Below are positions 23,929 through 55,900 of a DNA stretch of 64,000 bases, piece after piece; the first letter of the stretch is position 1; each line of letters opens with the position of its first letter. Origin of the DNA: an uncultured Verrucomicrobiae bacterium (GTDB lineage: Bacteria; Verrucomicrobiota; Verrucomicrobiia; Limisphaerales; UBA1096). Below the pieces are notes generated by a model. It did not search any database, was not told where the DNA came from, and worked only from the letters and a program-made list of their open reading frames with translations. The stretch spans positions 60,415-124,414 of the forward strand of contig CALJHX010000003.1 in NCBI GenBank assembly GCA_937770485.1, written 5' to 3'. The position numbers and the translations under genes were made by a program.

Positions 23929-24189
23929 TTGCATGGAAAGCCCTTGTTTTTTTTCAATCAGAAAACGTTCGAAGGCTGCCGTGGGCTGGAGATTAACGCC
24001 GAGATTCGGGTGTCCGTTGCAGCTCAGGCAAGCGTGTTATTGCTACACCGCGAACCGGCCTTCTATTCGACGCTGCGTACTATCCTTGTTTATCCCTGCT
24101 CGCACCTCGCAAAAACAGCACTTACGATGAGAAAAGCTATGTGCATCGACTGGAGGACTGTTGCCTGTATGCAACGGCTCATACAATGA
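23929..24189 (+). pseudogene. N-terminal fragment of an MtfA/M90-like zinc peptidase (truncated, no HExxH region)
   Basis: ..KTFEGCRGLEINAEIRVSVAAQASVLLLHREPAFYSTLRTILVYP.. resembles the conserved N-terminal half of MtfA-family proteins. The ORF stops after 86 aa and I found no continuation in other frames. Confidence 0.35.
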
Positions 24190-24361
24190 CTGCAAGTCTG
24201 GTGAGCAGCGCTTGGACTAAACGCACAAAAAAACTGAGAAGGATTCAGAGGGAGGTCGTGTTACACCTCGCCATGGGCGAATGATCGTACTGCGTCATAC
24301 CTACTGCTAGCACCTTGCCCGGGTTGATGGTTTTGACGGAAATAATAAGATTCTTTCAAAT

Positions 24362-25636: not shown

Positions 25637-26187
25637 CAGATCGAACTAACATTACAAGAAGATTGACTCATATCAGATTCCTAAACTAGCAATTTAATTT
25701 TTAAATTCAAACTTTATCAAGATTCAACAATTGTGATGATATTATGAATAATGTTAAAAAAGTTAGTTATGGAGAACTTATCTGCCGCATAAGAATCACA
25801 TTTGGCATTATTTTTTTTTGATTTTTCATTGTGCGCCAGTGGTTTTTGTCAGAGCTCGGGACTGATACATGCTAGGCCTAAAGTAAAATGCGAATTCGTT
25901 GTTGCCTCAGAAGACGTTAGCGATACTTTCACCGGTGACGAAGCGGCCAAGTAGTTTTCCATTTGGCGGCACCACTGTCCTGAAGTGCCTCTCGAGGGGA
26001 ACTGCAAGAGCCTCTGCTCTCCGCATCCGCATCTCTGAAACCCTCAAATGGCTTGCCTACCACTTCAAAAGAGAGGCAGGACTAATGGAGCCCTTCGCCC
26101 CCTCAAGCACCAGCTTAGCCTTGACTCCCGGCGCTGGCCTGCACCTGCACATCAAAAGGCCCCAGCCTACCGCCCCCGTCCCGCACC

Positions 26188-30387: not shown

Positions 30388-30537
30388 AGGGTAGAGCCTT
30401 AAAGATAAATATTTGAGATACATGGGGACATGGTACTTTTAATAGATAAAACTTGTATTTTATTTTACAGAAAAAGTGTTTACACAACCCTTCGCTCAAG
30501 TGATTGTTCTTTACTATTAATTAACTCCAACAGGAAT

Positions 30538-33500
30538 ATGAAAAGAAAAACCATTCAATCATTTTTCAAATATTTGTACATGAGCGCACTTGTCGCGCTG
30601 GTGGCTGTCGTGACGCCGGTGACAGCCCAGACGTTGCTTGAGGAGGACTTTTCCTCCGGTTTTGAGGAGTGGACCGTGGTGCATCCCCCGGGTGCCTTCA
30701 ACGGTTCCACCCGGTGGCAGGTTGGTGCTTCGGGAGAGACGCTTTTTGAAAACAGCAATGTCCGGGCGCCCGGCTCGGCAGGAATGTTGATCAATGAAGC
30801 CAAGACCGGTGAAAACTACACCTACAAGGCGCTCCTGATGAGCGGGGATGACGACGGCATCGGGCTGGTGTTTGGCTACAAGGATGCATCCAACTTTTAC
30901 CGGATCATGTTTGCCTCCCAAGAGGAGCGTAACACGTTTCCCGGTGAGGGTTGGCTGCTGGAGCGGGTTGTGGATGGTAGTGCCATTCATCTGGGTGGGG
31001 ACGATTACAGTGAAGATTGGGAACCTGATTTCATCTATATACAAGGGTATCCGTTTGAAGTGACGATCAAAACCAAAGGAAAGAAATTGACCATTACCGT
31101 GGTAGATGATCCCGAGGAAGACGGGACCGAGTACGAACTGGTCAGCAACCTTACAATCCCCGCGGACGCGGACGGCAACGTGGGGCTTGCGAGTTGGGAA
31201 CAGGCAGGCGGAATTCCCTCCGGGTCTCACTTTAGTGATATTTCGGTGGACGGGAAGGAAGTCGCGATACCCAATCCGCTTGAGGGATGGGAGGAAGTGA
31301 TCCCCCTAAACTATGAGGAAAATGATTTCCTGGAGGGTGGGAACGAAGGCATACCCCTGTGGAGTGTTGGAATCACTACCGATTCTGTAGCTGGGGGGAT
31401 CCTGACCGAGTCGAGCAACAGTGGGTTGGCCGGCATCGAGATTGAGGGAGTGGATGAAGAATTCTACAGCAATCTCGACTGGGTGAGCGGTATGCTTGTC
31501 AAGGGTGATGCGAAGTGGAAGGACTACCGCATTTCCACAAAGCTGCATCCCTATCCCCACTGCGCCTTCACAGGATGCTGGGTCAATGGGCATGGGGTAG
31601 TTTTCCGGTACAAGGATCCGGAGAATTTTTATCGGCTCTCCTTTTCGAGTCGGAATCCTGGCGACGGCTTGCCGCGCCAGGGTGTTTCGATCCAAAAGGT
31701 GGTTAACGGGGAATGGAGCGAGGTGTTTTGGGAGAAGGGGGCGGCGTTTTCCTCCAAGAAATTTGTCCCTAGCGGCAAGGCGGACCAAAGCGAATTTAAC
31801 CTGAACATGTCGATTGTTGGCAATCAGCTGGAGTTTAGCATCGTGAACGACCCGGACGGGATGGCTAAGGTGTTTAACTATGGCCCGATCGAAATCACCG
31901 GGGTTGATTCAGGCAAGGTAGGTTTTTTCAGCTGGTACCAGCACAAGCTGGACATCCATCATATCAAGGTGGAGGAGATTGCCGGAATGCCCTTTGAGGT
32001 GTTCAGCAATTTTGGAAAACCGAGTCCACCGGCCGGTTTGACCAACTTCGAGCCGGGGACAAAGGTGCTTGCGACAGTTCCCAGTCCTATTGTGGATCCT
32101 CCGGGATTTCGCCGTAAGGTGACCGGTTGGAGCGGGACTGGCTCTGCTCCCAAGGGGGGCATCTGGTTTTTGCCGGGAAACCCGAGGCTGTCATTCGTCA
32201 TCAACCAGGCCTCCTCGTTGACTTGGAATTGGAAGACTGAGGTCAAGGTCAACATTACTGCGGATGGAGGAGGGAAGGTAACCGGTGGAAGTTCCAAGTG
32301 GTACAAGGAGGGATCCAAGTTGATCGTCACTGCGGTACCCAGTACTGGCAATATGTTTGATGGCTGGTACGGAGCTGTCGCAAGTAAAGAGCGCAAGCTG
32401 ACTGTGTATACCGACCGTCCGCTGGATTTGATTGCTGCTTTCCGTCCGGACTCGGATCGGGACAAGATGGACGATGATTGGGAGAAGAAATATATTGGCA
32501 ACCTTAACGAACAAGGGAGTGGCGACTTTGACGGGGACGGGGTGAGCAACATGGACGAGTACCGTCGTCGCACCAACCCGGCGGCGGAGGAGGAGCTGGT
32601 GTACGAGGTGCCCTCCAACTGGAAGAATCCAAATGTATCCAATCCCTATACGGTCGGGCGTATGGTCGTGGCGGACTTCGGCAAGGGCTACAGTGGTATC
32701 TGGGAGAACAGCGGAACTGGAATCGCTGCTAGCAGCGACGAATTTGAATTTATTGATTGGCGCGGGCCAAAGGTCGTTCTGAAGGACTCGGTCTGGGAGG
32801 AGGACTGGAAGGATGGCGTTTACGAAGCGACCTTTGTGGTCGGAGATTCCGACACGAGCTGTATTTATTTTCGCTATCAGGATGAGGACAACTGGTACCG
32901 GGCCTCGATTTCAGGGAGAGAAGGAGACGGAATTCAAAAGACTGACAAATGGGGCTCCTATACTGTCAATGGTGTGACTGCGGCGCAGATTGGCTTAACC
33001 ATCCAGAAGAAGGTAAATGGGGTGTATCAGTTAATTGAGGAATACGACGATTATATGATTCCTGATCCGGAGGATGACACGCTGAAGATCATCAAGTTGA
33101 AGGTCTCCGCGAATGGGAATTCCTTCAAGGTGCAGGCTATTCCCTACGACCCGATTAATCTGAAAGACTTTGATGATGATGAAGCCTCCGAGGAAGTGTC
33201 GTTCAATGATGAAGCTCTGGCAACCGGCTGTGTGGGAGTTGGCTTTGCTTATCAGGGTAATGGTTTTAACTGGTGTCGATCATGTCCTGGGGGACCGGCG
33301 GACACGGCGACAGAAAATATCCCAGTTGGTTCTGGTGTTTTGTTAAATGATTTATCCATCCAAGTGAACGAAAAAATCGTCTTTCGTGACTCATGGACCT
33401 TCCACGACACTCCAACAGGTCTGCCCGTTGGTTGGTTCAATCCTTTTGCGAGCCAAGAAGGCTCCATGGCAGGAGAATGGGTGCCTAGCGCTCACGGTGG

Positions 33501-34311
33501 ATTTATCCAGATGTCCCCATTTTTCCTGCCAAGCCTCACGAAAAAAGACATCGCTAAGGCAGACGGCGAGGGTCCTGTACTACTAGCTCCGCTGGTAAAA
33601 GAGCAGGATTTTGTCCTTGAGCTAGGCTTGCTGTCACACAACGCCAATAATTTGCTAACAACAGTCGACGGTCTCGGTTTTGTCTATGATTACATCGATG
33701 AAAACAATTTTGCCCGTGTGCTTTTCGTGAATCCAAAGGCGCTCAACCTCGAAGGCGGGTCAACAATACCTCGGGGCATTAACATAAGTCGCAAGATCCA
33801 GGGACAGTGGCGTGATATCATTGTTGGTGATCTATCCTTCACCTATCAGCGAGGAAGACCTTTCGATGTTGCATTTACGGCTGAAAAAGGGAATTATCAT
33901 TTAGTGATAAAAGAACACGACCCAATGTTCGTTTGGAATAGTTGGGAAAGGGTTTACGTTCCGGCTACACCGAACGAGATCAAAAAAGGTCCAAAGTCCG
34001 CAGAATTGCACTGGAGTGACAAAGAAATCACCAGTGGAACTCGATATGGGCTAACTACCTGGGGTTCAAGATATGCCCATTTTCTTCATGCTAGAGCTTA
34101 CTCACTTGATGGCAAGAATTCACAGCCGTCCAAACCACCCGTTCTTGCCGTTTCACGCAACGGTAACAAAGTGAGCATTACATGGGAGGGCGAAGGCACT
34201 TTGGAAAGTGCGGAGCAGATCGGAGGTCCGTGGTCTGAGGTTCGTGGCGTTTCCAGTCCAACCACTGTTCAACCTGTTGCCAAGCAAGGTTACTACCGTT
34301 TGAAGAGATGA
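30538..34311 (+). CDS. Large secreted protein with four ConA/LamG-like beta-sandwich modules, an InlB-B-type repeat, a TSP3-like Ca-binding linker and a shared C-terminal module
   Basis: I prefer the start MKRKTIQSFF.. with a signal peptide. The signature recurs four times: GIGLVFGYKDASNFYRIMF, HGVVFRYKDPENFYRLSF, SCIYFRYQDEDNWYRASI, LGFVYDYIDENNFARVLF. Also present: GGGKVTGG..GSKLIVTAVPSTGNMFDGWYG and DSDRDKMDDDWE..GDFDGDGVSNMDEY. Confidence 0.7.
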   Translation: MKRKTIQSFFKYLYMSALVALVAVVTPVTAQTLLEEDFSSGFEEWTVVHPPGAFNGSTRWQVGASGETLFENSNVRAPGSAGMLINEAKTGENYTYKALLMSGDDDGIGLVFGYKDASNFYRIMFASQEERNTFPGEGWLLERVVDGSAIHLGGDDYSEDWEPDFIYIQGYPFEVTIKTKGKKLTITVVDDPEEDGTEYELVSNLTIPADADGNVGLASWEQAGGIPSGSHFSDISVDGKEVAIPNPLEGWEEVIPLNYEENDFLEGGNEGIPLWSVGITTDSVAGGILTESSNSGLAGIEIEGVDEEFYSNLDWVSGMLVKGDAKWKDYRISTKLHPYPHCAFTGCWVNGHGVVFRYKDPENFYRLSFSSRNPGDGLPRQGVSIQKVVNGEWSEVFWEKGAAFSSKKFVPSGKADQSEFNLNMSIVGNQLEFSIVNDPDGMAKVFNYGPIEITGVDSGKVGFFSWYQHKLDIHHIKVEEIAGMPFEVFSNFGKPSPPAGLTNFEPGTKVLATVPSPIVDPPGFRRKVTGWSGTGSAPKGGIWFLPGNPRLSFVINQASSLTWNWKTEVKVNITADGGGKVTGGSSKWYKEGSKLIVTAVPSTGNMFDGWYGAVASKERKLTVYTDRPLDLIAAFRPDSDRDKMDDDWEKKYIGNLNEQGSGDFDGDGVSNMDEYRRRTNPAAEEELVYEVPSNWKNPNVSNPYTVGRMVVADFGKGYSGIWENSGTGIAASSDEFEFIDWRGPKVVLKDSVWEEDWKDGVYEATFVVGDSDTSCIYFRYQDEDNWYRASISGREGDGIQKTDKWGSYTVNGVTAAQIGLTIQKKVNGVYQLIEEYDDYMIPDPEDDTLKIIKLKVSANGNSFKVQAIPYDPINLKDFDDDEASEEVSFNDEALATGCVGVGFAYQGNGFNWCRSCPGGPADTATENIPVGSGVLLNDLSIQVNEKIVFRDSWTFHDTPTGLPVGWFNPFASQEGSMAGEWVPSAHGGFIQMSPFFLPSLTKKDIAKADGEGPVLLAPLVKEQDFVLELGLLSHNANNLLTTVDGLGFVYDYIDENNFARVLFVNPKALNLEGGSTIPRGINISRKIQGQWRDIIVGDLSFTYQRGRPFDVAFTAEKGNYHLVIKEHDPMFVWNSWERVYVPATPNEIKKGPKSAELHWSDKEITSGTRYGLTTWGSRYAHFLHARAYSLDGKNSQPSKPPVLAVSRNGNKVSITWEGEGTLESAEQIGGPWSEVRGVSSPTTVQPVAKQGYYRLKR

Positions 34312-34477
34312 TCGAAATGGGCCACTGTTAGTCAAGCATGGGAATTGGGATGGGCCTCTTTGCACAGGCGGTTTATTCAGTTTACAACACCATAAGTGGA
34401 GACGAAATAAATCCGCCGAGCTTTTCCGCAAACAAGGTGGTAAGACGGGTGAAGAATTGAAAGCTGAAGGCAAATGA
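34304..34477 (+). pseudogene. Start-less ankyrin cassette relic overlapping the stop of the large gene and the start of the next ankyrin gene
   Basis: The frame reads ..[41 protein letters not shown]. Its TGA overlaps the ATG at 34474. Confidence 0.65.
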
Positions 34478-35421
34478 ATCACCTCCTACTCACAACAATC
34501 GCAGCCGTGGTGCTGGTGGGGTGTGGGTCGAGTGTGGATATTTGGATAGGTGCGCAAACTGGAAATATCGAAGCAGTCAAACAGCACTTGGCTGATGGGG
34601 TTGATGTAAATTCTAAGAGTGATATTGGTAGGACGCCACTTGATGTAGCAATAGCTTTTAAACAGCCCCTAATCACTGACCTACTCCGTAAACACGGCGG
34701 CAAAACGAGAGATCAACTAAAAGCAGCTGAATCGATTGTAGTGGCTGTTGAATTAGGAAACATTGAAGCTGTTAAACAGCATTTGAATGGTGGAACCGAG
34801 GTGAATGCGAAGGGTGGGACTGGAAGGACTCCTTTGCATTTGGCGGCTATTGAAGGCCACAAGGGAATCGCCGAACTGCTTATCGCCGAAGGTGCGGATG
34901 TGAATGCGAAGACTAAAGATGGCAAATCACCGCTAGATGAGGCCGTCAACCCCTTCTACAACAAAACCGAAATTGCTAATCTCATCCGCAAACACGGTGG
35001 CAAACATGGAACGATTCATAGTGCGGTTGGCGGTGGAGATGTCGAAGCCGCAAAGGAGTTCTTGGCTGCTGGTGCTGATGTGAATGTGAAGGATAAGCGT
35101 GGGTTCACTTCTTTGCATTGGGCGTCTATTTCCGGTCACAAGGAGGCTGTCGAACTGCTAATCGCCAAGGGTGCGGATGTGAATGCGATGAGGGGTGGTG
35201 GAGGGACTCCTTTGTCTTATGCGTCTTCTTGGGGTCACGAGGAAATCGTCGAACTACTTATCGCCAAGGGTGCGGATGTGAATGTGAAGGATGCTTTTAG
35301 CGAAACCCCACTGGATGTTTCTACTCATCCAGATAACCCAAATGCCTCCGCAGAAACCGCCACCCTTCTCCGCAAACACGGGGGCAAGACCAAGAAGGAA
35401 CTGGAAGCCGCAGGCAAATGA
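34474..35421 (+). CDS. Ankyrin-repeat lipoprotein composed of three fused cassette bodies
   Basis: MNHLLLTTIAAVVLVGC lipobox. Internal tail motifs: TDLLRKHGGKTRDQLKAAES and ANLIRKHGGKHGT. Terminal motif: ATLLRKHGGKTKKELEAAGK*. Confidence 0.9.
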   Translation: MNHLLLTTIAAVVLVGCGSSVDIWIGAQTGNIEAVKQHLADGVDVNSKSDIGRTPLDVAIAFKQPLITDLLRKHGGKTRDQLKAAESIVVAVELGNIEAVKQHLNGGTEVNAKGGTGRTPLHLAAIEGHKGIAELLIAEGADVNAKTKDGKSPLDEAVNPFYNKTEIANLIRKHGGKHGTIHSAVGGGDVEAAKEFLAAGADVNVKDKRGFTSLHWASISGHKEAVELLIAKGADVNAMRGGGGTPLSYASSWGHEEIVELLIAKGADVNVKDAFSETPLDVSTHPDNPNASAETATLLRKHGGKTKKELEAAGK

Positions 35422-36077
35422 AACACCTCCTGCTCACAACAATCGCAGCCGTGGTGCTGGTGGGGTGTGGTGAGTCGTCAATTCACAAAGCTGCCGAAGA
35501 AGGAAAGATTGAAGCCGTTAAACTGTATTTGACTGCTGGTTCAGATATTGAATTGAAATGTACTACATGTGGAGGCACAGCGTTAAGTCATGCAGCGCAT
35601 AGAGGTCATAAGGAAATAGTCGAATTACATATATCACAGGGAGCAATAATTAAAGCAAAGGGCAAGCATGGAGAGACTCCTATACATCAGGCAGCTTTAG
35701 CTGGTCACAGAGAAATTGTTGAACTCCAAATCGACAAAGGTGCCTACGTTAATTGGAAGGATAAAGTTGAGGCGACCCCGTTACATCGAGCGGCTCAAAG
35801 AGGTCATAAGGAGGTTGTCGTACTACTTATAAAAAAAGGCGCAGAAGTAAACACGAATGATATTCTTGAACAGACCCCTTTGCACTTTGCATCAAAACTC
35901 GGCACGAAAGAAGTTACTGAACTGCTTATGCAAAAAGGCGCGGATGTAAATGCGACAAAAGATGACGATAGCACGCCACTAGATATGGCCATCAAACACA
36001 AACGCACCGAAATCGCCAACTTCCTCCGCAAACACGGCGGCAAGACGGGTGCAGAATTGAAAGCCGCTGGCAACTAA
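35418..36077 (+). CDS. Ankyrin-repeat lipoprotein (cassette family)
   Basis: MKHLLLTTIAAVVLVGC lipobox, about 5 ANK repeats, ANFLRKHGGKTGAELKAAGN*. The start overlaps the upstream stop (ATGA). Confidence 0.9.
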   Translation: MKHLLLTTIAAVVLVGCGESSIHKAAEEGKIEAVKLYLTAGSDIELKCTTCGGTALSHAAHRGHKEIVELHISQGAIIKAKGKHGETPIHQAALAGHREIVELQIDKGAYVNWKDKVEATPLHRAAQRGHKEVVVLLIKKGAEVNTNDILEQTPLHFASKLGTKEVTELLMQKGADVNATKDDDSTPLDMAIKHKRTEIANFLRKHGGKTGAELKAAGN

Positions 36078-41884: not shown

Positions 41885-42095
41885 CAGACTTTATTAGCTT
41901 ATTAAATCGTTTCATGCAAGGTAAGTTCAAGAACACATAAGCCCATTTATGAAAAGTCAGTCTCTTCGAAATTAACAAAAGAAAACAGTTCTTTAAATAT
42001 TATTATTTTGGTGAAAATCCCTTGACAGGAACCCAGTAAATTATGAATGTCCGGCCGTTGTTTTTGATTTATTACCATCAGGATCTATTTTTATT

Positions 42096-45000
42096 ATGAC
42101 TAAACAAGCTAGTTTAAACGGAGTTATCGCCTTTATTATTGCATTGGCGGTAGGAATGCCTTCCTTGAAGGCGCAGGAATTGTCTCTGAGCGCCGAGGAC
42201 ATGCAGTACGACGCAAATGGAGCAAGCATTACACTTGATGGAGATGCCTCTGATTGGGCGGACGCCGAGTTCAAGAGCCAGATCCCGTTCGAGAAGGGTG
42301 GAGAGCTGGTATTATTTGAGGAGTACGGCGGCGGAACCTGGAGTGGTGTGGAGGATCACTCAAGCGCAGTGGCGTTTGCGTGGGATGCATCCAACTTATA
42401 TATCGGAGTTGTTGTGACAGATGACACGCACCAGAACGGTGGCAGTGGCTGGAACGGTGATTCGATCCAGATGGTATTTGCCAATGCAGCACAGGACACA
42501 GTGACTCACCTGTACAACTACGGTCTGAGCGACGGTGGTGATGTGGTGATCATGAATGAGAAGGGTCCAGGCGGTTCAGAGGCTTCGATCACACGTGATG
42601 AAGATTCAACGACTACGTTGTACGAGTTTTGTTTCCCAGCAGCCTCACTTGGTTTGGATGGCTACGAGAGTGGCATGCAGATCGGAGTGGGAGTATGCGT
42701 GAACGACGGTGATACACAGGATGGTCAGGGTGGCCAGAAGGGTTGGAGTGGTTGGGGTCCGTACGCAGCAGTGTACGGCAAGACAGCCAGTGCAACAGGA
42801 CTTGTGAGCCTTGTCGGTAACGCACCGGCTGCTGATCTAACGTTGAGCGCCGAGGACATGCAGTATGACGCAAATGGAGCAACCATTACACTTGATGGAG
42901 ATGCATCTGATTGGGCGGACGCCGAGTTCAAGAGCCAGATCCCGTTCGAGAAGGGTGGAGAGCTGGTATTATTTGAGGAGTACGGCGGCGGGACCTGGAG
43001 TGGTGCGGAGGATCACTCAAGCGCAGTGGCGTTTGCGTGGGATGCATCCAACTTATATATCGGAGTTGTTGTGACAGATGACACGCACCAGAACGGTGGC
43101 AGTGGCTGGAACGGTGATTCGATCCAGATGGTATTTGCCAATGCAGCACAGGACACAGTGACTCACCTGTACAACTACGGTCTGAGCGACGGTGGTGATG
43201 TGGTGATCATGAATGAGAAGGGTCCAGGCGGTTCAGAGGCTTCGATCACACGTGATGAAGATTTTACGACTACGTTGTACGAGTTTAGTTTCCCAGCGGC
43301 CTCACTTGGTTTGGATGGCTACGAGAGCGGCATGCAGATCGGAGTGGGAATATGCGTGAACGACGGTGACACACAGGATGGTCAGGGTGGCCAGAAGGGT
43401 TGGAGTGGTTGGGGTCCGTACGCAGCAGTGTACGGCAAGACAGCCAGTGCAACAGGACTTGTGAGCCTTGTTGGAGATGCACCGGCTGCTGATCTAACGT
43501 TGAGCGCCGAGGACATGCAGTACGACGCAAATGGAGCAAGCATTACACTTGATGGAGATGCCTCTGATTGGGCGGACGCCGAGTTCAAGAGCCAGATCCC
43601 GTTCGAGAAGGGTGGAGAGCTGGTATTATTTGAGGAGTACGGCGGCGGGACCTGGAGTGGTCCGGCTGATCACTCAAGCGCAGTGGCGTTTGCGTGGGAT
43701 GCATCCAACTTATATATCGGAGTTGTTGTGACAGATGACACGCACCAGAACGGTGGCAGTGGCTGGAACGGTGATTCGATCCAGATGGTATTTGCCAATG
43801 CAGCACAGGACACAGTGACTCACCTGTACAACTACGGTCTGAGCGACGGTGGTGATGTGGTGATCATGAATGAGAAGGGTCCAGGCGGTTCAGAGGCTTC
43901 GATCACACGTGATGAAGATTCAACGACTACGTTGTACGAGTTCAGTTTCCCAGCGGCTTCACTTGGTTTGGATGGCTACGAGAGTGGCATGCAGATCGGA
44001 GTGGGAATATGCGTGAACGACGGTGACACACAGGATGGTCAGGGTGGCCAGAAGGGTTGGAGTGGTTGGGGTCCGTACGCAGCAGTGTACGGCAAGACAG
44101 CCAGTGCAACAGGACTTGTGAGCCTTGTTGGAGATGCACCGGCTGCTGATCTAACGTTGAGCGCCGAGGACATGCAGTACGACGCAAATGGAGCAAGCAT
44201 TACACTTGATGGAGATGCCTCTGATTGGGCGGACGCCGAGTTCAAGAGCCAGATCCCGTTCGAGAAGGGTGGAGAGCTGGTATTATTTGAGGAGTACGGC
44301 GGCGGGACCTGGAGTGGTCCGGCTGATCACTCAAGCGCAGTGGCGTTTGCGTGGGATGCATCCAACTTATATATCGGAGTTGTTGTGACAGATGACACGC
44401 ACCAGAACGGTGGCAGTGGCTGGAACGGTGATTCGATCCAGATGGTATTTGCCAATGCAGCACAGGACACAGTGACTCACCTGTACAACTACGGTCTGAG
44501 CGACGGTGGTGATGTGGTGATCATGAATGAGAAGGGTCCAGGCGGTTCAGAGGCTTCGATCACACGTGATGAAGATTCAACGACTACGTTGTACGAGTTC
44601 AGTTTCCCAGCGGCTTCACTTGGTTTGGATGGCTACGAGAGTGGCATGCAGATCGGAGTGGGAATATGCGTGAACGACGGTGACACACAGGATGGTCAGG
44701 GTGGCCAGAAGGGTTGGAGTGGTTGGGGTCCGTACGCAGCAGTGTACGGCAAGACAGCCAGTGCAACAGGACTTGTGAGCCTTGTTGGAGATGCACCGGC
44801 TGCTGATCTAACGTTGAGCGCCGAGGACATGCAGTACGACGCAAATGGAGCAAGCATTACACTTGATGGAGATGCCTCTGATTGGGCGGACGCCGAGTTC
44901 AAGAGCCAGATCCCGTTCGAGAAGGGTGGAGAGCTGGTATTATTTGAGGAGTACGGCGGCGGGACCTGGAGTGGTCCGGCTGATCACTCAAGCGCAGTGG

Positions 45001-46289
45001 CGTTTGCGTGGGATGCATCCAACTTATATATCGGAGTTGTTGTGACAGATGACACGCACCAGAACGGTGGCAGTGGCTGGAACGGTGATTCGATCCAGAT
45101 GGTATTCGCCAATGCAGCACAGGACACAGTGACTCACCTGTACAACTACGGTCTGAGCGACGGTGGTGATGTGGTGATCATGAATGAGAAGGGTCCAGGC
45201 GGTTCAGAGGCTTCGATCACACGTGATGAAGATTCAATGACTACGTTGTACGAGTTCAGTTTCCCAGCGGCTTCACTTGGTTTGGATGGCTACGAGAGTG
45301 GCATGCAGATCGGAGTGGGAATATGCGTGAACGACGGTGACACACAGGATGGTCAGGGTGGCCAGAAGGGTTGGAGTGGTTGGGGTCCGTACGCAGCAGT
45401 GTACGGCAAGACAGCCAGTGCAACAGGACTTGTGAGCCTTGTCGGAGACGCACCTAGCGTTGATCTAACGTTGAGCGCTGAGGACATGCAGTACGACGCA
45501 AATGGAGCAACCATTACACTTGATGGAGATGCCTCTGATTGGGCGGACGCCGAGTTCAAGAGCCAGATCCCGTTCGAGAAGGGTGGAGAGCTGGTATTAT
45601 TTGAGGAGTACGGCGGCGGGACCTGGAGTGGTCCGGCTGATCACTCAAGCGCAGTGGCGTTTGCGTGGGATGCATCCAACTTATATATCGGAGTTGTTGT
45701 GACAGATGACACGCACCAGAACGGTGGCAGTGGCTGGAACGGTGATTCGATCCAGATGGTATTTGCCAATGCAGCACAGGACACAGTGACTCACCTGTAT
45801 AACTACGGTCTGAGCGACGGTGGTGATGTGGTGATCATGAATGAGAAGGGTCCAGGCGGTTCAGAGGCTTCGATCACACGTGACGACGATACGATGACTA
45901 CGTTGTACGAGTTTAGTTTCCCAGCGGCTTCACTTGGTTTGGATGGCTACGAGAGTGGCATGGCAATCGGAGTGGGAATATGCGTGAATGACGGTGACAC
46001 ACAGGATGGTCAGGGTGGCCAGAAGGGTTGGAGTGGTTGGGGTCCGTACGCAGCAGTGTACGGCAAGACAGCCAGCGCGACCGGTTTGGTTAATCTAGTG
46101 GGAGAGTCCACATCTGATGGTCCTGCTCTAAGCGTTGTGAGCAACGGAGATGGCACGGTAACGATGACCTTTGAAGGTACGCTACAGTCAGCTCCGACAG
46201 TGAATGGTCCATGGTCGGACGTGGACGCAGCGAGTCCGTTGACGGTTCCGGCCGACCAGGCAGCGCAGTTTGGCCGAGCAAAGAATTAA
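42096..46289 (+). CDS. Giant secreted protein: six tandem 219-aa CBM9/DOMON-like modules plus the shared C-terminal module
   Basis: Signal peptide, then 6 x (LSAEDMQYDANGA.ITLDGDASDWADAEF..AFAWDASNLYIGVVVTDDTHQNGGSGWNGDSIQMVFA..GVCVNDGDTQDGQGGQKGWSGWGPY..). The domain-family call is tentative. Confidence 0.75.
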   Translation: MTKQASLNGVIAFIIALAVGMPSLKAQELSLSAEDMQYDANGASITLDGDASDWADAEFKSQIPFEKGGELVLFEEYGGGTWSGVEDHSSAVAFAWDASNLYIGVVVTDDTHQNGGSGWNGDSIQMVFANAAQDTVTHLYNYGLSDGGDVVIMNEKGPGGSEASITRDEDSTTTLYEFCFPAASLGLDGYESGMQIGVGVCVNDGDTQDGQGGQKGWSGWGPYAAVYGKTASATGLVSLVGNAPAADLTLSAEDMQYDANGATITLDGDASDWADAEFKSQIPFEKGGELVLFEEYGGGTWSGAEDHSSAVAFAWDASNLYIGVVVTDDTHQNGGSGWNGDSIQMVFANAAQDTVTHLYNYGLSDGGDVVIMNEKGPGGSEASITRDEDFTTTLYEFSFPAASLGLDGYESGMQIGVGICVNDGDTQDGQGGQKGWSGWGPYAAVYGKTASATGLVSLVGDAPAADLTLSAEDMQYDANGASITLDGDASDWADAEFKSQIPFEKGGELVLFEEYGGGTWSGPADHSSAVAFAWDASNLYIGVVVTDDTHQNGGSGWNGDSIQMVFANAAQDTVTHLYNYGLSDGGDVVIMNEKGPGGSEASITRDEDSTTTLYEFSFPAASLGLDGYESGMQIGVGICVNDGDTQDGQGGQKGWSGWGPYAAVYGKTASATGLVSLVGDAPAADLTLSAEDMQYDANGASITLDGDASDWADAEFKSQIPFEKGGELVLFEEYGGGTWSGPADHSSAVAFAWDASNLYIGVVVTDDTHQNGGSGWNGDSIQMVFANAAQDTVTHLYNYGLSDGGDVVIMNEKGPGGSEASITRDEDSTTTLYEFSFPAASLGLDGYESGMQIGVGICVNDGDTQDGQGGQKGWSGWGPYAAVYGKTASATGLVSLVGDAPAADLTLSAEDMQYDANGASITLDGDASDWADAEFKSQIPFEKGGELVLFEEYGGGTWSGPADHSSAVAFAWDASNLYIGVVVTDDTHQNGGSGWNGDSIQMVFANAAQDTVTHLYNYGLSDGGDVVIMNEKGPGGSEASITRDEDSMTTLYEFSFPAASLGLDGYESGMQIGVGICVNDGDTQDGQGGQKGWSGWGPYAAVYGKTASATGLVSLVGDAPSVDLTLSAEDMQYDANGATITLDGDASDWADAEFKSQIPFEKGGELVLFEEYGGGTWSGPADHSSAVAFAWDASNLYIGVVVTDDTHQNGGSGWNGDSIQMVFANAAQDTVTHLYNYGLSDGGDVVIMNEKGPGGSEASITRDDDTMTTLYEFSFPAASLGLDGYESGMAIGVGICVNDGDTQDGQGGQKGWSGWGPYAAVYGKTASATGLVNLVGESTSDGPALSVVSNGDGTVTMTFEGTLQSAPTVNGPWSDVDAASPLTVPADQAAQFGRAKN
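42177..46118 (+). repeat. Six tandem direct repeats of exactly 657 bp
   Basis: Units start at 42177, 42834, 43491, 44148, 44805 and 45462. Units 3 and 4 are identical over the 657-nt comparison frame 43501-44157 vs 44158-44814 (compared line by line). Unit 5 differs at a handful of positions, and units 1, 2 and 6 differ slightly more. Confidence 0.95.
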
Positions 46290-46323
46290 TTCGGTTAATT
46301 AAACCAAAAAAAACACTCATCTA

Positions 46324-46356
46324 GAGACCGGGCTTAATGCCCGGTCTCTTTTTTTT
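46324..46356 (+). terminator. Rho-independent terminator
   Basis: GAGACCGGGC-TTAAT-GCCCGGTCTC (perfect 10-bp stem) followed by T8. Confidence 0.85.
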
Positions 46357-47085
46357 AAAAGCAACGCAAAAGCGAAACTCGAAAGTATTATGAATAACTG
46401 TAATATTAATCATTTTACACATAACTCAAAAGCATGCCTCGGTAAGAGACCACGCTGAGTGGTGTTCCCTTTGTATGGAGGGAAAGAAGATTGAGAAAGA
46501 ATTGTCAGCTAGAATTAAAAACATTCAATTATTTAAACGCCATAGGATAGTGGTAGAGTGGTGAAAGGGGTAATTGGTGGAAATTGATTTTCATATGACA
46601 CCTAGGATGACTGTCGTAGCCAACTGATGCAGCAAGTTATTGAGTGTATGATAAGTGGTTTTACCATGTGCCCTGGATGACACTATTTTATCCTGATTCA
46701 CAATGGTTAGTTCCTCTCAGGAAGTAACCAGTAATAATAAAATTAGGATGAAAGACGTTAATCTAACTATATGAGTCCTAAATGCTTTTCGCCTGTTTAA
46801 GAATAAAATCGCTGAGTTTATAGGGAAGTACCTCGGTCTTTTGAGACTCGGATTCTTTCGGTTTTAATTGCCGATGGCTATGTTTTGGGTTGTCTCTTAC
46901 ATTATTAATCAATCATATCAGATAACAATGCTATTATGTAAAGGTTCTTCATTTTAAAAGCTGCCTCAATGCATTTGCAGAATGAAGTAAATACCTGTTT
47001 TTTTCATTGAGATTGACTCGCCCTATCACGACTGACACTTTTCTCGCCTTATTTGGTGAGTGCTTAGTATAAGTTTACAGGAATT

Positions 47086-48156: not shown

Positions 48157-51100
48157 GTGAATTGCTTTCCCTACAATAATTATTGCGCCGGAAATTTCGT
48201 TAGGCTGATTTTTTCTGTTTTCTTTCTAAGTTTCGAAAGCCCAGGAGTTCCTGCCAACTCACCAGATAATAATTTACAAAAGGGATATTCTTCCAGAGAA
48301 CTGAATATCCAATCTCGTGGGACTTCCAATACTTTCTACAGAATACCTCACGAGAAAACTGGGGTTCAATTTGTGAACCAAGTGGATGAATGGGAGGCAT
48401 CCCAAAACAGGGTTCTCTACAACGGTGCAGGTATTGCCGTGGGAGATTATAACAAGGATGGATGGCCGGACATTTTCCTTTGTGCCATCGATGGCAATTC
48501 AGTCTTGTACAAGAACAACGGCAACTGGACCTTTGCGGACACCACCTCCTCGTCCGGCTTGCAAGAACTGGGACACCGTCACCGGGGAGCGGTATTTGCT
48601 GATTTAAATGGGGATGACTGGTTGGATTTGCTCGTAGGGACAGTGGATCGTGGGATCAGGACGTTCATTAATCAGCGTGGTGTATATCAGGAAATGTCCC
48701 AGGCTTCAGGGCTGGCTGGAGTGTATGCACCCATGACCATGGCTTTGGCAGATGTTGACAGTAATGGGACCCTGGACCTGTATGTCACCAATAACCGGCC
48801 CTCAGATATTAGGGATGAGGGCTCAATTACATTGAGGCGTGTTGGAGGCAAATTGGTAATCCCAGCGAAGTACAGAAACCGGCTGATTGTATCCGGTGGT
48901 ATCGTTAAGGAATACGGGTCGGCTGATTTCCTGTTTCTAAATGACGGGAAAGCTATTTTCAGGAAATCTAGTTGGACAGAGGGGAGATTCCTCACTCCCC
49001 AAGGTGAACCGTTAAGTGATGCACCTTTGGATTGGGGGCTGTCTGCGGCGTTTCATGACATCAATCACGATGGCCTTCCGGATTTGTACGTATGCAATGA
49101 TTTTTGGACTCCAGACAGGTTCTGGATAAACCAAGGAGACGCTTTCAAATTATTAGACCCGGAAAAATTTGGCAAGACATCTGCAAGTTCAATGGGCGTG
49201 GATTTTTCCGATTATGACAGGGATGGGGATGTGGACCTTTTTGTGGTGGATATGTTGAGCAGGGATTTGGAGATGCGCAAGCGACAGGCTCCCGCTCAGG
49301 ACTTGTCGGATCGTCTGGTGAACCAAGGTAAATACGCAGACCAAGTCATGAGGAACACCCTGTTGAATAATCGCGGCGACGGTTCCTTTGCAGAATTGGC
49401 AAACATGGCTGGATTGTCTGCATCAGACTGGTCTTGGTCGCCTTTTTTTCTGGATGTGGATCTGGATGGCTATGAGGATTTGATCATCACTGCTGGCCAC
49501 TACAAGGACACACAGGACTTGGACGTCAACGCACTGATTCAGACCAGGCAGAAGCCAAGAGACAGATCGCTTACCGCACAACAAAGAAAGTTGCAGTTTT
49601 CAAAAGAGATGATGGAAAACAACCGTCTCTACCCCAGTTTGGATTTACCCATCATCACATTTCGGAATGAGGGCAATGGTGTGTTTGAGGAGAAGACCTT
49701 ACAGTGGGGGACGAGTGACAATGGGATTCATCATGGGATGGCTTTGGCTGATTTTGACTTGGACGGCGACATGGATTTGATCGTAAACAACATGAATCAG
49801 GAAGCGGGGCTTTATGAAAACAGGTTTATGGCACCACGCCTTGCCGTAATATTGCACGGTGAGTCTCCTAATACTAGTGGCATAGGTAGCAAGGTTTCGC
49901 TGACTGGTGGCGCTGTGGAGGTACAAACCAAGGAAATAGTTTCCGGAGGGCGATTCCTTTCCGGTTCGGAAACAAAAGTTGTCTTTGGCACCGGAAGCGG
50001 GTCAAACAAAATGAGCCTCGTCGTGGAGTGGCGAAGCGGAAAAACGAGTGTAATTGATCAAGTTAAACAGAATTGTCTCTACCATGTTTACGAAAAGGGT
50101 TCATCCGAAGACAAAAAAGATAAAAAACTATTGCCGACTTCTCCTTTATTCGAGAAGTTGAGTGAGAGCATATATCATGTACATGTGGAGAATGTGTTCG
50201 ATGATTTTGCCAATCAACCGCTTTTGCCATTCAAACTGAGCCAAGCAGGCCCGGCAGTCTGTGTGTACGATATTAATGCAGACCATTGGGATGACTTGAT
50301 CGTTGGTTGCAGCGCGGGTGGCCGGCTTCATGTGTTTCTTAACGATCAAAACGGCGGTTTTAGGCAATTGTCGGTCAGCCAGGTTTCTCAAGATGATGTG
50401 GCTTCCATTTTTTCCCTTGGCACAGGCAAAGAAAATGAGTTTTTCACCATCAACTGCGGCTATGAAGGCGGCAGTGGTGTCATTTTGAGCCGCCATCAGT
50501 TGGTGGAAGAAAAAATTCTTTCCAATAGCGTTATGAGTATCCCCATTAAATCGGTGGGTGCCGTTGCCCAGGCGGATATAGATGGCGATGGTGACCTTGA
50601 TTTGTTTCTTGGAGGAGGGGTTTACCCGGGGAAATATCCTGAATCATCAAAGTCTGCAATTTATCTTCAGAATGGACCCCAGTTTGTACCTGATAGTTCC
50701 AACGCAAAAACCCTTTTGGGGTTGGGGGTCGTGAATGGTGCCGTCTGGTCTGATTTGGATGCGGATGGATATCCCGAATTGATCACAGCAGGGCACTGGC
50801 AGCCTGTTCGTATCTTTAAAAATGTGAAAGGCATCCTGAAGAATGTGACCAAAGAGATGGGGTTGGAGGGATTCACTGGTTTATGGAATTCCGTTCAAGT
50901 TGGAGATATCAATGGAGATGGCAGAATGGACTTGGTAGCTGGGAACTGGGGTTTGAACAGTCCCTACAAGTTGCCCCCCGAGAAGCCCTTGAACCTTGTT
51001 TTCGGTGATATTAATCAGGACGGAACCAACGAGCTCATCGAAAGTGATTATAATGCGGGAGTGCTTGTTCCAGTTCGGACATTCAAGGATTTGGCCGGGC

Positions 51101-51846
51101 CCATGCCGTTCCTGTATTCACAATTCAAGAGTTTCAGGCAGTTCAGTCGAGCAAGTGTCGCCCAAGTGCTTGGTGACACCCAAGCAAAGGCGAGGTTGCT
51201 TTCTGTACAAACATTGCATTCCTGCGTGTTCATCAATGAAGGGAATCGCTTTAGAATGGCAAACTTACCGGATGCAGTCCAGAGGGCTCCCACTCATGGC
51301 ATTGTTGTTGACGATTTTGACGGGGACGGTATTGAGGATTTGTTCCTCGCGCAGAACTTCTTCCCGACACGAACCCAGAGTGAGCGGTTGGATGCATCGA
51401 GGGGCGTTCTCCTGAAGGGGCAAGGGACGGGAAACTTCACGGTCCTGGAATCTAAGCAAAGTGGAATTAATCTTGTCGGTGACCAAAGAGCCGCAGTTTC
51501 AGGAGATTTCGACCGCGATGGAATGAGTGATCTTGTCGTGACACGGAACAGTGGAGAGACCGGTCTATTTCTTAATAAATCGAAAAAAATCGGATTGCGT
51601 GTGGTGGTTCAGGGGGCTGCGGGGAATACCCATGGAATAGGATCTGTTTTGAGGTTGAAATATCATGACGGGATGGGCCCGGCTCGCCAAATCACTGGGA
51701 GCAGCGGTTACCGTTCACAGGGTAGTTCCGTTCAAGTGTTACACGCAATTCGGCCGGTTGAATCCGTTTGGATACAGAAACCCGACGGCAAGATTCTGAC
51801 CCATGAAATAAAGAAGGGCACGCGTGAGGTGAGGATCAACTATTAA
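48157..51846 (+). CDS. FG-GAP/VCBS repeat protein with ASPIC/UnbV domains (CRTAC1-like)
   Basis: Many ..D.DGDG..DL.v.. FG-GAP-type repeats. Two UnbV/ASPIC-like segments: GIGSKVSLTGGAVEVQTKEIVSGGRFLSGSE and GIGSVLRLKYHDG..ITGSSGYRSQGS. GTG start, so the exact start is uncertain. Confidence 0.8.
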   Translation: MNCFPYNNYCAGNFVRLIFSVFFLSFESPGVPANSPDNNLQKGYSSRELNIQSRGTSNTFYRIPHEKTGVQFVNQVDEWEASQNRVLYNGAGIAVGDYNKDGWPDIFLCAIDGNSVLYKNNGNWTFADTTSSSGLQELGHRHRGAVFADLNGDDWLDLLVGTVDRGIRTFINQRGVYQEMSQASGLAGVYAPMTMALADVDSNGTLDLYVTNNRPSDIRDEGSITLRRVGGKLVIPAKYRNRLIVSGGIVKEYGSADFLFLNDGKAIFRKSSWTEGRFLTPQGEPLSDAPLDWGLSAAFHDINHDGLPDLYVCNDFWTPDRFWINQGDAFKLLDPEKFGKTSASSMGVDFSDYDRDGDVDLFVVDMLSRDLEMRKRQAPAQDLSDRLVNQGKYADQVMRNTLLNNRGDGSFAELANMAGLSASDWSWSPFFLDVDLDGYEDLIITAGHYKDTQDLDVNALIQTRQKPRDRSLTAQQRKLQFSKEMMENNRLYPSLDLPIITFRNEGNGVFEEKTLQWGTSDNGIHHGMALADFDLDGDMDLIVNNMNQEAGLYENRFMAPRLAVILHGESPNTSGIGSKVSLTGGAVEVQTKEIVSGGRFLSGSETKVVFGTGSGSNKMSLVVEWRSGKTSVIDQVKQNCLYHVYEKGSSEDKKDKKLLPTSPLFEKLSESIYHVHVENVFDDFANQPLLPFKLSQAGPAVCVYDINADHWDDLIVGCSAGGRLHVFLNDQNGGFRQLSVSQVSQDDVASIFSLGTGKENEFFTINCGYEGGSGVILSRHQLVEEKILSNSVMSIPIKSVGAVAQADIDGDGDLDLFLGGGVYPGKYPESSKSAIYLQNGPQFVPDSSNAKTLLGLGVVNGAVWSDLDADGYPELITAGHWQPVRIFKNVKGILKNVTKEMGLEGFTGLWNSVQVGDINGDGRMDLVAGNWGLNSPYKLPPEKPLNLVFGDINQDGTNELIESDYNAGVLVPVRTFKDLAGPMPFLYSQFKSFRQFSRASVAQVLGDTQAKARLLSVQTLHSCVFINEGNRFRMANLPDAVQRAPTHGIVVDDFDGDGIEDLFLAQNFFPTRTQSERLDASRGVLLKGQGTGNFTVLESKQSGINLVGDQRAAVSGDFDRDGMSDLVVTRNSGETGLFLNKSKKIGLRVVVQGAAGNTHGIGSVLRLKYHDGMGPARQITGSSGYRSQGSSVQVLHAIRPVESVWIQKPDGKILTHEIKKGTREVRINY

Positions 51847-52902: not shown

Positions 52903-55900
52903 ATGAAACGTCTATTACAAACCGTATTGGTGAGCAGCTTTTTGGCTGCCAGTTCTGTCACCTACGCTCAGAGCGTAGCCCAACCGGGAGATCCGGTTAT
53001 TGCCTCTTCTGCAAACAGTCCCGGATCCGAGGGTGTAGCGAATGCAATTGATGGAAAACCCACAAAATACCTGAATTTTGACGGTAAAGATGGAAACCCC
53101 TCTGGGTTTATCGTTTCCCCTTCTTTGGGCAAAACACTTGTTACTGGCCTTTCGATGCAGACGGCGAATGATGGGCCGGATCGTGATGTCAAGGTGGTTA
53201 CACTCGAAGGGTCTAATGATGCAGAGGCAACCGCATGGGATGCAGGTAACTGGGAGTTGATCGTTCAGTTAGATGATATCCCTGCAATTGAGGATCGTTT
53301 TACAACTCAGACGTTTAGTTTTGAGAATAAAAAAGGTTTCATGCACTACCGCTGGACGGTGGTCGATACTCAGGGCCCAAGTACTTGTTGTATGCAAATC
53401 GCAGAGGTTGGCTTTTTGGGAGGTGTTTACTCTGGGCCGACTGATGTAACGCAGCCAGGTGATGCTATCATAGCATCTTCGGCAAATAGTCCGGGTTCTG
53501 AAGGGGTTGCCAATGCAATTGATGGGCAACCGACCAAGTATTTGAATTTTGATGGTAAAGACAGTCAACCATCAGGATTTGTTGTTACACCTTCACTGGG
53601 TATGACCTATGTGACAGGAATGGCCTTGCAGTCAGCAAATGATGGCCCAGATCGGGACCCGAAGTCGATTACACTTGAAGGGTCCAATGACGATGAGATA
53701 ACAGCATATGATGAGGGTAATTGGCAGTTAATCACTCAAATAGATGATATCCCTGCATGGACAGGTCGTTTTCAAACAAAAGAATTGTTTTTTGAAAATG
53801 ATCGAGCATTTAAACACTACCGTTGGGTTGTATTGGATACACAAGGACCTAGTACTTGCTGCTTGCAGATCGCTGAGGTCGAACTACTTGGGGCGGTTCC
53901 TCCGTCTGATGTCACAAGCCCTGGAGATGCCTTGATTGCATCTTCTGCCAATAGTCCGGGTTCTGAAGGCGTAGCTAATGCGATCGATGGACAGCCGACG
54001 AAGTATTTGAATTTTGACGGTAAAAACAGTGTGCCATCCGGTTTCGTAGTGACCCCTTCGATTGGCAAGACTGTTATTACTGGTGTGCATATGCAATCAG
54101 CAAACGATGGCCCGGATCGTGATGTGAAAGTTGTTAGGATTGAGGGATCCAATGATAACGAAATTGCAGACTACGATTCTGGGAATTGGCAATTGATCAC
54201 AGAGATGAATGTTCCTGCTTACACGGGTCGTTTTCAGTCTCAAGTGCTCATGTTTGATAATGTTTGGGCTTTCAAGCATTACAGGTGGATAGCGGTTGAC
54301 ACGCAGGGGCCGAGTACCTGCTGTATGCAGATCGCAGAAGTAGAACTGCTGGGTGGAGCTGCTCCAAAGGATGTTACATCACCAGGTGATGCAGTATTCG
54401 CAAGTTCAGCTAACAGCCCCGGTTCTGAGGGTGTTGCTAACGCAATCGATGGCCAACCCACAAAATACTTGAACTTTGATGGGAAGAATAGTGTTCCCTC
54501 AGGTTTTGTGGTTACTCCAGGAATTGGCGCTACGACAATTACAGGAGTATCTATGCAGACCGCAAATGATGGTCCTGACAGAGATGTAAAGGTCCTTTTA
54601 ATTGAGGGAACAAATGATGTTGTTTCTGGTTGGGATGACGGCGCTAGCTGGACACAGATTATCCAGATTGATGACATTCCAGCAATTGAAGATCGTTTCA
54701 CAAACCAAGAATTTTATTTTGCAAACGACAAATCTTACACCAGTTACAGGTGGACTGCAGTAGATACGCAAGGGCCGAGCACTTGCTGTATGCAGATTGC
54801 TGAAGTGGAGTTTTTAGCCGCCACAACATCAGTTGACTGTGACTTGGCCGCATTCAAGCGGCAGCCTGTCGACGCGGTTGTGCTGGATGGGGAACCGGCC
54901 ACGTTCCTGGTGGAGGTGAACGGTCCCTGGCCACTGCAGTGGCACAAAAATGGAGAGCCGATTTCGGGAGCGGTTTCAACCAGCTACACAACTGAAGCGG
55001 TTAACGCAGGAAATATATCTGACAAGTATTCCGTTCAGATAGTGGGATGTGAAATGAGTGCCGAGGTAGTTGCGAGCATCCATGATCCGAGCGCGCACCC
55101 GGTTAGCATCGGTCTTAACTTTAATGGTGGAGGTGCCAATGGTGCTCCAACTGCCTCACTTCCGACAGATATAGCTGGAGTTCAGCTTCAGGCATATTGG
55201 AATAATATTGCGAACAATACCGGAAATAATGAGGAGGTGCTGCTGGATAGTCTTGGTAAAGATGCCTTGGGAGTTGAAGACTATGAAATTACAGTCGATT
55301 TTGCTTCTGCGGGCAATTGGGGTGCGGGAACAGGTGATGCAAATCCGACTCAGAGATTACTTAATGGAACACTGGTAGGGCGGGGAGGCGATTCGCATAT
55401 AGAATTCCAGGAGATTCCAGATGGAAATCACACCCTGATCGTCTATACGGTCGGAATTCCACTTCAGTTTCAAAACCAATACTACAAGGTTGTAGGGGAA
55501 GAGGAGGACTCAGATCGCGTAATTTACACCGATCAGATGAATGCGGATCAATATAATCCCATTCAGCGGTTTTTCCGTGGCTCGAGTGAAGATTCAAACA
55601 ATAGGACACTATCAAACTATGTGAGATTTGATAATGTAAAACCAGTTGAAGGTTATGTTCGGCTTGAGTGGGGCACAACAACAACTGGTTTTGATAGGGG
55701 TGTTGCTGTCAATGCTGTTCAGTTGATCTTGAATAATCCGGCATTGTCAATCGATCCCCCCTCAGTCACGTCTAATCCGACACCAACTATCGCTCAGGAG
55801 GGAAGTGCAGCTTCGATCTCAGTTGCAGCAACTGGCGAGGGGTTGACCTACCAGTGGCTTAAGAACGGTGCTGCCATCCCTGATGGCGGAAAAATTAGTG

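Follow-up and report, generated by a model that had tools for sequence, protein, structure and literature searches.

Carbohydrate-binding modules of family 9 (CBM9) are beta-sandwich domains, represented by the solved structures of TmCBM9-2 (PDB 1I82, 1I8A and 1I8U) and CkCBM9.3 (7NWN and 7NWO), and they occur in tandem in xylanases (PMC8280721). Here, we describe a gene encoding six near-identical modules of this type, located within a 64,000-nucleotide (nt) stretch of DNA, referred to below as the window, from an uncultured Verrucomicrobiae bacterium (GenBank assembly GCA_937770485.1, contig CALJHX010000003.1, positions 60,415 to 124,414). The repeat unit has the predicted fold of the CBM9 modules, a Pfam PF06452 match far above the cut-off, and an invariant tryptophan that aligns with the first tryptophan of the CBM9 sugar-binding clamp. 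However, it is longer than a typical CBM9 (219 versus ~190 amino acids, aa), with which it shares 14-15% identity, and the protein contains no glycoside hydrolase or esterase, whereas CBM9 modules are typically found on GH10 xylanases. The six copies show 93-100% nucleotide identity, in contrast to the two or three diverged copies of known tandem CBM9s, and they belong to a subfamily specific to the Planctomycetes-Verrucomicrobia-Chlamydiae (PVC) bacteria that has no characterised member.

Repeats of comparable identity define the Periscope proteins and similar bacterial surface proteins (SasG/Aap, Rib/alpha C, Sgo_0707 with its SHIRT domains, Esp and the BIg inverse autotransporters), in which folded repeats of more than 50 aa are encoded by near-identical DNA and the copy number changes by homologous recombination (PMC8201768, PMC9704523). 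The protein from the window likewise has repeats exceeding 50 aa, near-identical DNA, and an identity between adjacent domains far over the limit usual in multidomain proteins. Unlike the Periscope proteins, it has neither a separate adhesin tip nor a known anchor, its repeat is a lectin-type module instead of a stalk domain, its host is an uncultivated free-living marine bacterium and not a host-associated pathogen, and no length variation was seen among five assemblies of the species. The array also resembles tandem arrays that evolve in concert, such as ribosomal DNA, satellites and repeat surface antigens, in the likeness of its units within a lineage, its identical centre and diverged edges, its conversion patches and its lineage-specific copy number. 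The mechanism is identical; the array described here is a protein-coding case, whose large in-frame unit is subject to purifying selection. Finally, the DOMON haem subunits (2IVF_C, 7B04 and the cytochrome domain of cellobiose dehydrogenase, 1PL3) share a related beta-sandwich topology and gave weaker Foldseek matches, but the window unit is structurally less similar to them, has no conserved methionine, and has no redox partners encoded nearby.

The phenomenon is of a well-known kind, to which tandem CBMs, concerted evolution and surface or secreted proteins with high-identity tandem repeats belong, and none of the findings presented here overturns current understanding. No specific report of CBM9 arrays in Verrucomicrobia was found in a literature search. 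The array provides a clear instance, verified across assemblies, of concerted evolution acting on a large protein-coding repeat, in an abundant uncultivated marine polysaccharide degrader. The explanation that we favour, with a probability of roughly 0.65 for the whole, is that the gene encodes a Sec-exported multivalent glycan-binding protein with six CBM9 modules, whose array was duplicated and subsequently homogenised by recombination.

The repeat array and its copy number

The region contains a single long open reading frame (ORF; 42096..46289, + strand, 1397 aa), composed of a signal peptide, six in-frame units of 657 nt (42177-46118) and a 56-aa tail. A repeat search found six copies, each starting exactly 657 nt from the next, and self-comparison at a lag of 657 nt gave a match extending from 42181 to 46087 with 98.2% identity. 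These two approaches were used in place of Tandem Repeats Finder, which reported no array, its longest period (500) being shorter than the unit. The period, the number of units and the protein length given in an earlier note, made from the sequence alone, were thereby reproduced.

Two unit frames are used in this work: that of the earlier note, with unit 1 beginning at 42187, and a codon-aligned one, with unit 1 beginning at 42177. In the former, units 3 and 4 (43501-44157 versus 44158-44814) do not differ at any of the 657 positions, in agreement with the note, which had called them identical at every position compared, and the longest exact self-match at this lag reaches 1121 nt (43329-44449 versus 43986-45106). 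Unit 5 differs from these two units at 9 nt, and the two changes singled out previously are among them: 45107 T>C (unit position 293) and 45238 C>T (unit position 424), the latter replacing ACG with ATG (Thr>Met). The outer units are indeed more diverged, with unit 2 differing from units 3/4 by 11 nt, unit 1 by 15 nt and unit 6 by 37 nt; in unit 6, the differences mostly fall in the final ~55 nt, at the junction between the array and the unique tail. With 93-100% nucleotide identity overall, the 657-nt repeats cannot be explained by chance.

In the codon-aligned frame, all on the + strand, unit 1 spans 42177..42833 (aa 28-246; 21 nt from units 3/4 in this frame), unit 2 42834..43490 (aa 247-465), unit 3 43491..44147 (aa 466-684), unit 4 44148..44804 (aa 685-903), unit 5 44805..45461 (aa 904-1122) and unit 6 45462..46118 (aa 1123-1341; 31-37 nt from units 3/4, with repeat homology stopping near 46087). 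The start codon and a Sec-type signal peptide (aa 1-26, MTKQASLNGVIAFIIALAVGMPSLKA before QE) occupy 42096..42173 (+). Read by eye from the translation, this peptide has a basic n-region, a hydrophobic core and LKA ahead of the predicted cleavage site, and it contains no lipobox cysteine. Unit 1 begins one residue past it. On the minus strand, ORFs start at 42271, 42928, 43585, 44242, 44899 and 45556, i.e. at the 657-nt steps previously reported. These and other out-of-frame ORFs were rejected as real genes, being a trivial shadow of the repeat.

The earlier note had cautioned that the true copy number might differ from six. Near-identical 657-nt units are what short-read assemblers mishandle, and the six copies, or the identical central ones, might then have been made by the assembler, with another number in the genome. 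The window protein is present in the protein database as P0456, from a 318-kb NCBI contig, and the 1397-aa gene was found, with one or two substitutions, on four further contigs: (i) contig_2450 of assembly ERZ8136210 (35 kb; L003), (ii) ctg78714_8x_l of ERZ25069326 (1.02 Mb; L004), (iii) FRAM_RAS_F4_07_1819 of ERZ24888605 (565 kb; L005), and (iv) contig_1781 of ERZ8136131 (153 kb; L006). Each carries all six units with the same unit-specific markers as the window. They differ from the window and from one another at a few sites (the L003 flanks show ~98% nucleotide identity to the window) and are therefore independent assemblies of closely related strains. The FRAM RAS metagenomes were sequenced with PacBio HiFi reads of 5.4 kb mean length (PMC12254263), and the longest exact repeat of 1121 nt is well under this value. 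In addition, the array is anchored by unique markers in units 1, 2, 5 and 6. Given the five concordant assemblies, an assembly artefact is essentially excluded.

The warning about short reads itself proved sound. The same 90% protein cluster contains many metagenome fragments from the Joint Genome Institute (JGI), together with chimeric complete ORFs of 302 aa (one unit) and 521 aa (two units), and short-read contigs terminate inside the array; the JGI assemblies were taken as short-read on the basis of contig names and sizes. A scan of metagenome contigs revealed no further complete arrays, the contigs breaking within them. One contig (L022), whose match length had suggested an array of at least seven units, was rejected, since its architecture is different and the unit is present little more than once. 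The ORFs with one or two units from short-read assemblies could reflect either collapse or genuine deletion. In short-read metagenomes, this gene is systematically broken or collapsed, which makes the copy number of this and similar repeat genes unreliable in most public metagenome-assembled genomes (MAGs).

The presence of six units is thus far uniform: all five conspecific consensus assemblies, one of them PacBio HiFi, contain this number, the doubt about the copy number was not borne out, and six as the true count for the window species is well supported. According to the earlier note, a uniform copy number across strains, with normal depth, would indicate that there are no ongoing dynamics; with the count constant, nothing in the consensus assemblies points to a rapidly changing copy number within the species. 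The variation between cells suggested in the note likewise found no support in these assemblies, although minority variants may exist.

Comparison of units within and between lineages

A sister lineage with ~92% nucleotide identity and the same gene neighbourhood carries seven units, as found in two assemblies (L001 and L002). In L001, the array is contained in a 1617-aa ORF, in which units 2-5 are identical and unit 6 deviates by 1 nt. The L002 array is the same, except for a 1-nt deletion in unit 1 (L002 1902-2557; GGTGG-AGTGG versus GGTGGCAGTGG), which lies outside a homopolymer and splits the gene into two ORFs in this HiFi assembly. The deletion is either a real pseudogene/frameshift allele or a consensus error.

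Comparison of the two lineages revealed that the units resemble their neighbours in the same array, not their positional counterparts. The nucleotide distances between units 1-5 range from 0 to 23 within the window species, compared to 45-55 to any unit of the sister lineage, and average-linkage clustering grouped the units by lineage and not by position. The last unit follows the same pattern, with 37 nt to the interior units of its own lineage versus 63 nt to the last unit of the other. In both lineages, the first unit is distinct, as is the last unit, which is joined to the tail.

Such clustering is equally expected if each lineage expanded its array independently from a single unit after the split, with no ongoing exchange, and the identical interior units of the seven-unit lineage are in line with that explanation too. 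However, the architecture, with its distinct end units, is common to both lineages, and the conspecific strains differ in a way that such an expansion does not explain. The six-unit pattern varies between the five conspecific arrays at 17 sites. Within unit 2 of the window strain, unit positions 455, 507 and 527 (tract 455-527) are unit-3-like, whereas these positions are unit-1-like in three of the four other strains, and in L003 at 455 and 507 only. Units 2-4 of L003 have C at sites 629 and 635, both of which are T in the other strains. At site 293, the units with a C vary from strain to strain: unit 5, units 3 and 5, units 5 and 6, or none. Variants that occupy different or several units in different strains (293, 455-527 and 629/635) require exchange between existing units, and independent expansion is quite unlikely.

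Concerted evolution of the array by intragenic recombination is therefore supported, because the units group by lineage and conspecific strains differ by patches copied between units. Gene conversion is recent, even though the copy number has remained unchanged within the species. The reading of the gradient as unequal recombination or gene conversion, put forward in the earlier note, agrees with the lineage-wise clustering, the inter-unit patches and the seven-unit sister lineage. Of the 40 codons differing between the lineages, 31 are synonymous and 9 non-synonymous; the module is therefore under purifying selection.

In the proposed history, the array would have been born by a recent lineage-specific tandem duplication of the 657-nt unit. 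RecA-type homologous recombination between misaligned units, in the form of unequal crossing-over and gene conversion, would then keep it homogeneous, with the interior units homogenised most and the edge units least. In tandem arrays, unequal exchange reaches the edge units least, which leaves an identical centre and diverged edges. The copy number would shift now and then, giving six units in the window species and seven in the sister lineage.

To place the array in a wider context, homologues of the unit were examined. Among 1.84 billion cluster representatives, the subfamily has 4677 members at E<=1e-3 and 159 at E<=1e-30; it is a restricted, PVC-specific group, and the named homologues come mostly from Verrucomicrobiota. 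The homologues found in the first search have one to four units that are only 40-48% identical to the window unit. They mostly lie at the N-terminus, ahead of PA14, GLEYA, Laminin_G_3 or F5/8 type C domains. Among the 149 listed matches stronger than E 1e-34, each protein has one to three matching stretches, save P0234 with four; P0268, with six stretches at E 9e-35, is an exception to the general pattern.

In most homologues with two to four units (proteins P0005-P0083), adjacent units are 75-95% identical, and in most homologues the units occupying the same position in related proteins are no more alike than those in different positions; clear positional orthology was observed in a minority, of the P0010/P0013 type. 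Because adjacent units are this similar and positional orthology is weak, homogenisation of tandem CBM9-like units seems to be a habit of the family, of which the window gene is the extreme case. Together with the C-terminal module described below, this family-wide homogenisation is the part of the results that most deserves further attention.

Closer relatives of the unit are arranged differently. Single units 71-93% identical to that of the window occur in quite different architectures, and the only matches in a scan of GTDB representative genomes were a contig of 795 nt (86%) and one unit (71-76%) in a Verrucomicrobiales MAG. In protein P0004, encoded on a 13-kb contig from ENA, a CBM9-like module 85% identical to that of the window lies within a block of ~394 aa that is repeated three times with near identity; the block comprises one unit and ~175 aa holding two other domains. 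As P0004 demonstrates, high-identity repetition in this clade is not limited to the 657-nt unit.

Fold of the unit and proposed function of the protein

The Pfam model CBM9_1 (PF06452) matched the 1397-aa protein in six stretches, with 168.3 bits against a cut-off of 23.4 (E 2e-49). No other Pfam or NCBIfam domain, catalytic modules included, was found in the 1397 aa. The structure of unit 3 was modelled with AlphaFold2 from an alignment of 30 homologous units taken from the database matches (41-82% identical to the window unit). The resulting all-beta model had a predicted local distance difference test (pLDDT) score of 92.3 and a predicted template modelling (pTM) score of 0.91. Its top three Foldseek matches in PDB were 1I82, from Xyn10A of Thermotoga maritima, and 7NWN and 7NWO, from Caldicellulosiruptor, all of them CBM9 (E ~3e-9, TM score 0.67-0.76), and the next-ranked match was a putative carbohydrate-binding protein of Bacteroides. 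The structure prediction and Foldseek search proposed in the earlier note thus returned solved CBM9 structures as the best matches, and its tentative call of a CBM9/DOMON-like beta-sandwich gained support from Pfam, the model (pLDDT 92) and the fold comparison. On these three lines, the unit is a CBM9-fold beta-sandwich.

The CBM9 structures could be reached by the subfamily profile and the fold search only: a single-sequence phmmer search of one unit against the PDB sequences gave no match even at E 10, while the profile found the 1I82 sequence at E 1.5e-4. This profile search places two invariant residues of the unit, Trp92 and Gln98, with high posterior probability, opposite the Trp and Glu of the 1I82 motif PWEQDSVE (chain positions 72 and 78). 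Trp92 corresponds to Trp71 in the numbering of PMC8280721, a member of the aromatic pair that clamps the sugar in TmCBM9-2; the clamp is formed by Trp71 and Trp175, assisted by polar ligands such as Gln96 and Asn172 (PMC8280721). The subfamily also has an invariant Trp190, located 14 residues past a conserved VNDGD (30 sequences), a possible equivalent of Trp175.

The poorer Foldseek matches included the gamma subunit of ethylbenzene dehydrogenase (2IVF_C, E 4e-5) and NxrC of nitrite oxidoreductase (7B04). The CBM9_1/DOMON superfamily includes haem-binding members, and His85 is invariant in the 30 subfamily sequences; the units might therefore be cofactor domains of the DOMON type, binding haem b or another ligand and serving extracellular electron transfer or sensing instead of glycan binding. 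Known DOMON cytochromes ligate haem with a pair formed by Met plus His or Lys, but no Met is invariant or nearly so in the 30 sequences. The TM scores of these matches (0.47-0.54) are also much poorer than those of the CBM9 structures, the partner domains in homologues are lectin-like and not redox domains, and no redox partner gene adjoins the repeat gene. CBM9 is the closer relative of the unit, and a cofactor-binding role is very unlikely.

Multivalent glycan binding is the most likely function suggested by the sequence, because the protein has an export signal, no catalytic domain and six equivalent CBM9-type sites, and its homologues carry lectin-type partners. The product would be a Sec-exported protein of six CBM9-fold modules with no known catalytic or other domain and a small beta module at its end, either released or held at the cell surface, and the avidity of six equivalent sites would allow it to capture algal or particle polysaccharide. 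If the modules do bind algal glycans, multivalency could help marine Verrucomicrobiota to capture polysaccharide.

The repeats might instead form a spacer of the Periscope type, setting the projection of a functional tip, with a length that varies within the population. Long tandem repeats highly identical at the DNA level are the defining trait of that class (PMC8201768, PMC9704523), and the sister lineages differ in having six or seven copies. However, there is nothing to project, as unit 1 follows the signal peptide after one residue and nothing remains besides the 56-aa tail. Moreover, the 219-aa repeat unit has a lectin-type fold of its own, the length is constant among the five conspecific assemblies, and no LPXTG motif or beta-barrel anchor was found in the protein. 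A stalk function is considered unlikely.

Several observations weigh against a homogenised, multivalent glycan-binding array at the cell surface. The alignment of the profile with 1I82 ends short of Trp175, the identity to characterised CBM9s is just 14-15%, and some true CBM9s, e.g. CBM9.1, do not show any binding (PMC8280721). Scans with models for LPXTG, beta-barrel and other anchors, and with Pfam and NCBIfam, found no known anchor or sorting signal, and a surface location is a guess. Length-changing recombination is rare on the within-species time scale, because all five conspecific assemblies share six units. Finally, the long-read origin of L003, L004 and L006 was deduced from contig names and, for L003 and L006, also from a frameshifted neighbour gene.

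A further alternative is that the gene is a contingency locus. Recombination would yield subpopulations with varied numbers of glycan-binding modules, the 1- and 2-unit ORFs being real deletions, and would thereby adjust how strongly, or how far out, the cell can bind algal polysaccharide or particles. The C-terminal module would keep the protein on the cell, serving as sorting signal for a route of surface attachment, so far uncharacterised, in marine Verrucomicrobiota, with a logic like that of the C-terminal domain of the type IX secretion system (T9SS). We give this alternative a small chance of being correct, and retain the exported glycan-binding protein with a recombinationally homogenised array as the best explanation.

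The C-terminal module and the gene neighbourhood

The last unit is followed by the 56-aa module (DGPALSVVSNGDGTVTMTFEGTLQSAPTVNGPWSDVDAASPLTVPADQAAQFGRAKN) and the stop codon (46119..46289, +). The module had no match at E<=10 in Pfam or NCBIfam. Copies of it were found at the extreme C-terminus of three proteins encoded within 27 kb of the window (46119-46286, 56839-57006 and 34138-34308): besides the repeat protein, it ends two other large secreted proteins with lectin domains, encoded at 52903-57009 (57% identical) and 30430-34311 (40% identical). The consensus, of ~55 aa, is ...DGTVTVTFEGTLQSAPTVNGPW.DV.A.SPLT......F.RAKN. The module was present in 30 of the 134 fetched proteins, which vary in architecture, and always lay 36-39 residues from the C-terminus. 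In the alignment, made with a 62-residue query consisting of the tail and the six preceding residues, the invariant positions were G26, L28, A31, G36-P37-W38 and R59. A profile search added 267 proteins, nearly all of them unnamed C-terminal fragments. The module also ends many proteins of marine Verrucomicrobiota-like bacteria.

The AlphaFold2 model of the tail is a five-strand module (pLDDT 88.5), whose fold matches were weak and FN3/Ig-like (E>=0.16). Assignment of the tail to the T9SS C-terminal domains or to other known sorting domains was rejected, as the fold matches show no such resemblance. The extreme C-terminal position and the distribution of the module suggest a role in sorting or anchoring, and the shared module is thus a candidate signal of this kind that is absent from the libraries searched.

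The repeat gene looks monocistronic, because it has its own terminator downstream and a divergent sulfatase gene upstream. The intrinsic terminator (46323..46357, +) is found 34 nt past the stop codon and consists of an 11-bp GC-rich hairpin and a subsequent T run, and the gene is separated from the divergently transcribed sulfatase gene by an AT-rich gap of 211 nt. A possible sigma-70-like promoter in this gap (41972..42001, +; TTAACA-18-AATATT) is weak, with 9/12 consensus matches, and since promoter-like sites in the region are no commoner than in shuffled sequences, it is a candidate only.

The neighbouring genes encode a sulfatase, an alginate-lyase/GDSL protein, a BNR protein, a pectate-lyase-like protein and an FG-GAP/ASPIC protein, as well as a DUF1559 pseudopilin-like protein, a PSCyt1/PSCyt2/PSD1 and DUF1501 pair, and a 1368-aa F5_F8C/Ig/Laminin_G protein. 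This neighbourhood is typical of marine PVC (Verrucomicrobiota-like) polysaccharide degraders. The host was placed in the PVC group, probably in Verrucomicrobiota, on the basis of the names given to relatives of its neighbouring genes at >=90% and of the hallmark families DUF1559, PSCyt1/2, PSD1 and DUF1501. The PSCyt1/PSCyt2/PSD1 protein and the DUF1501 protein that follows it (18516-22230) form a pair characteristic of Planctomycetota and Verrucomicrobiota. The gene for the 1229-aa FG-GAP/ASPIC protein (48157-51846) is intact in the window, L004 and L005, and is split or shortened in L003 (16060-19750) and L006 (9062 onward); these breaks are probably frameshift errors of noisier long-read assemblies.

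Between the repeat gene and a DUF1573 gene lies an AT-rich gap of ~800 nt (46290-47085; GC ~0.42) with no ORF of 100 aa. In the matching interval of the sister lineage (L002 7092-7524), the opposite strand carries small ORFs with ankyrin repeats. The window itself also encodes, at 34474-36077, a pair of neighbouring ankyrin-repeat proteins (315 and 219 aa) whose genes have overlapping stop and start codons, an unusual cargo for a free-living bacterium. A patch of low GC content (0.41, compared to the window mean of 0.51) is located at 24001-26000, around an ORF at 24362-25636 (-).

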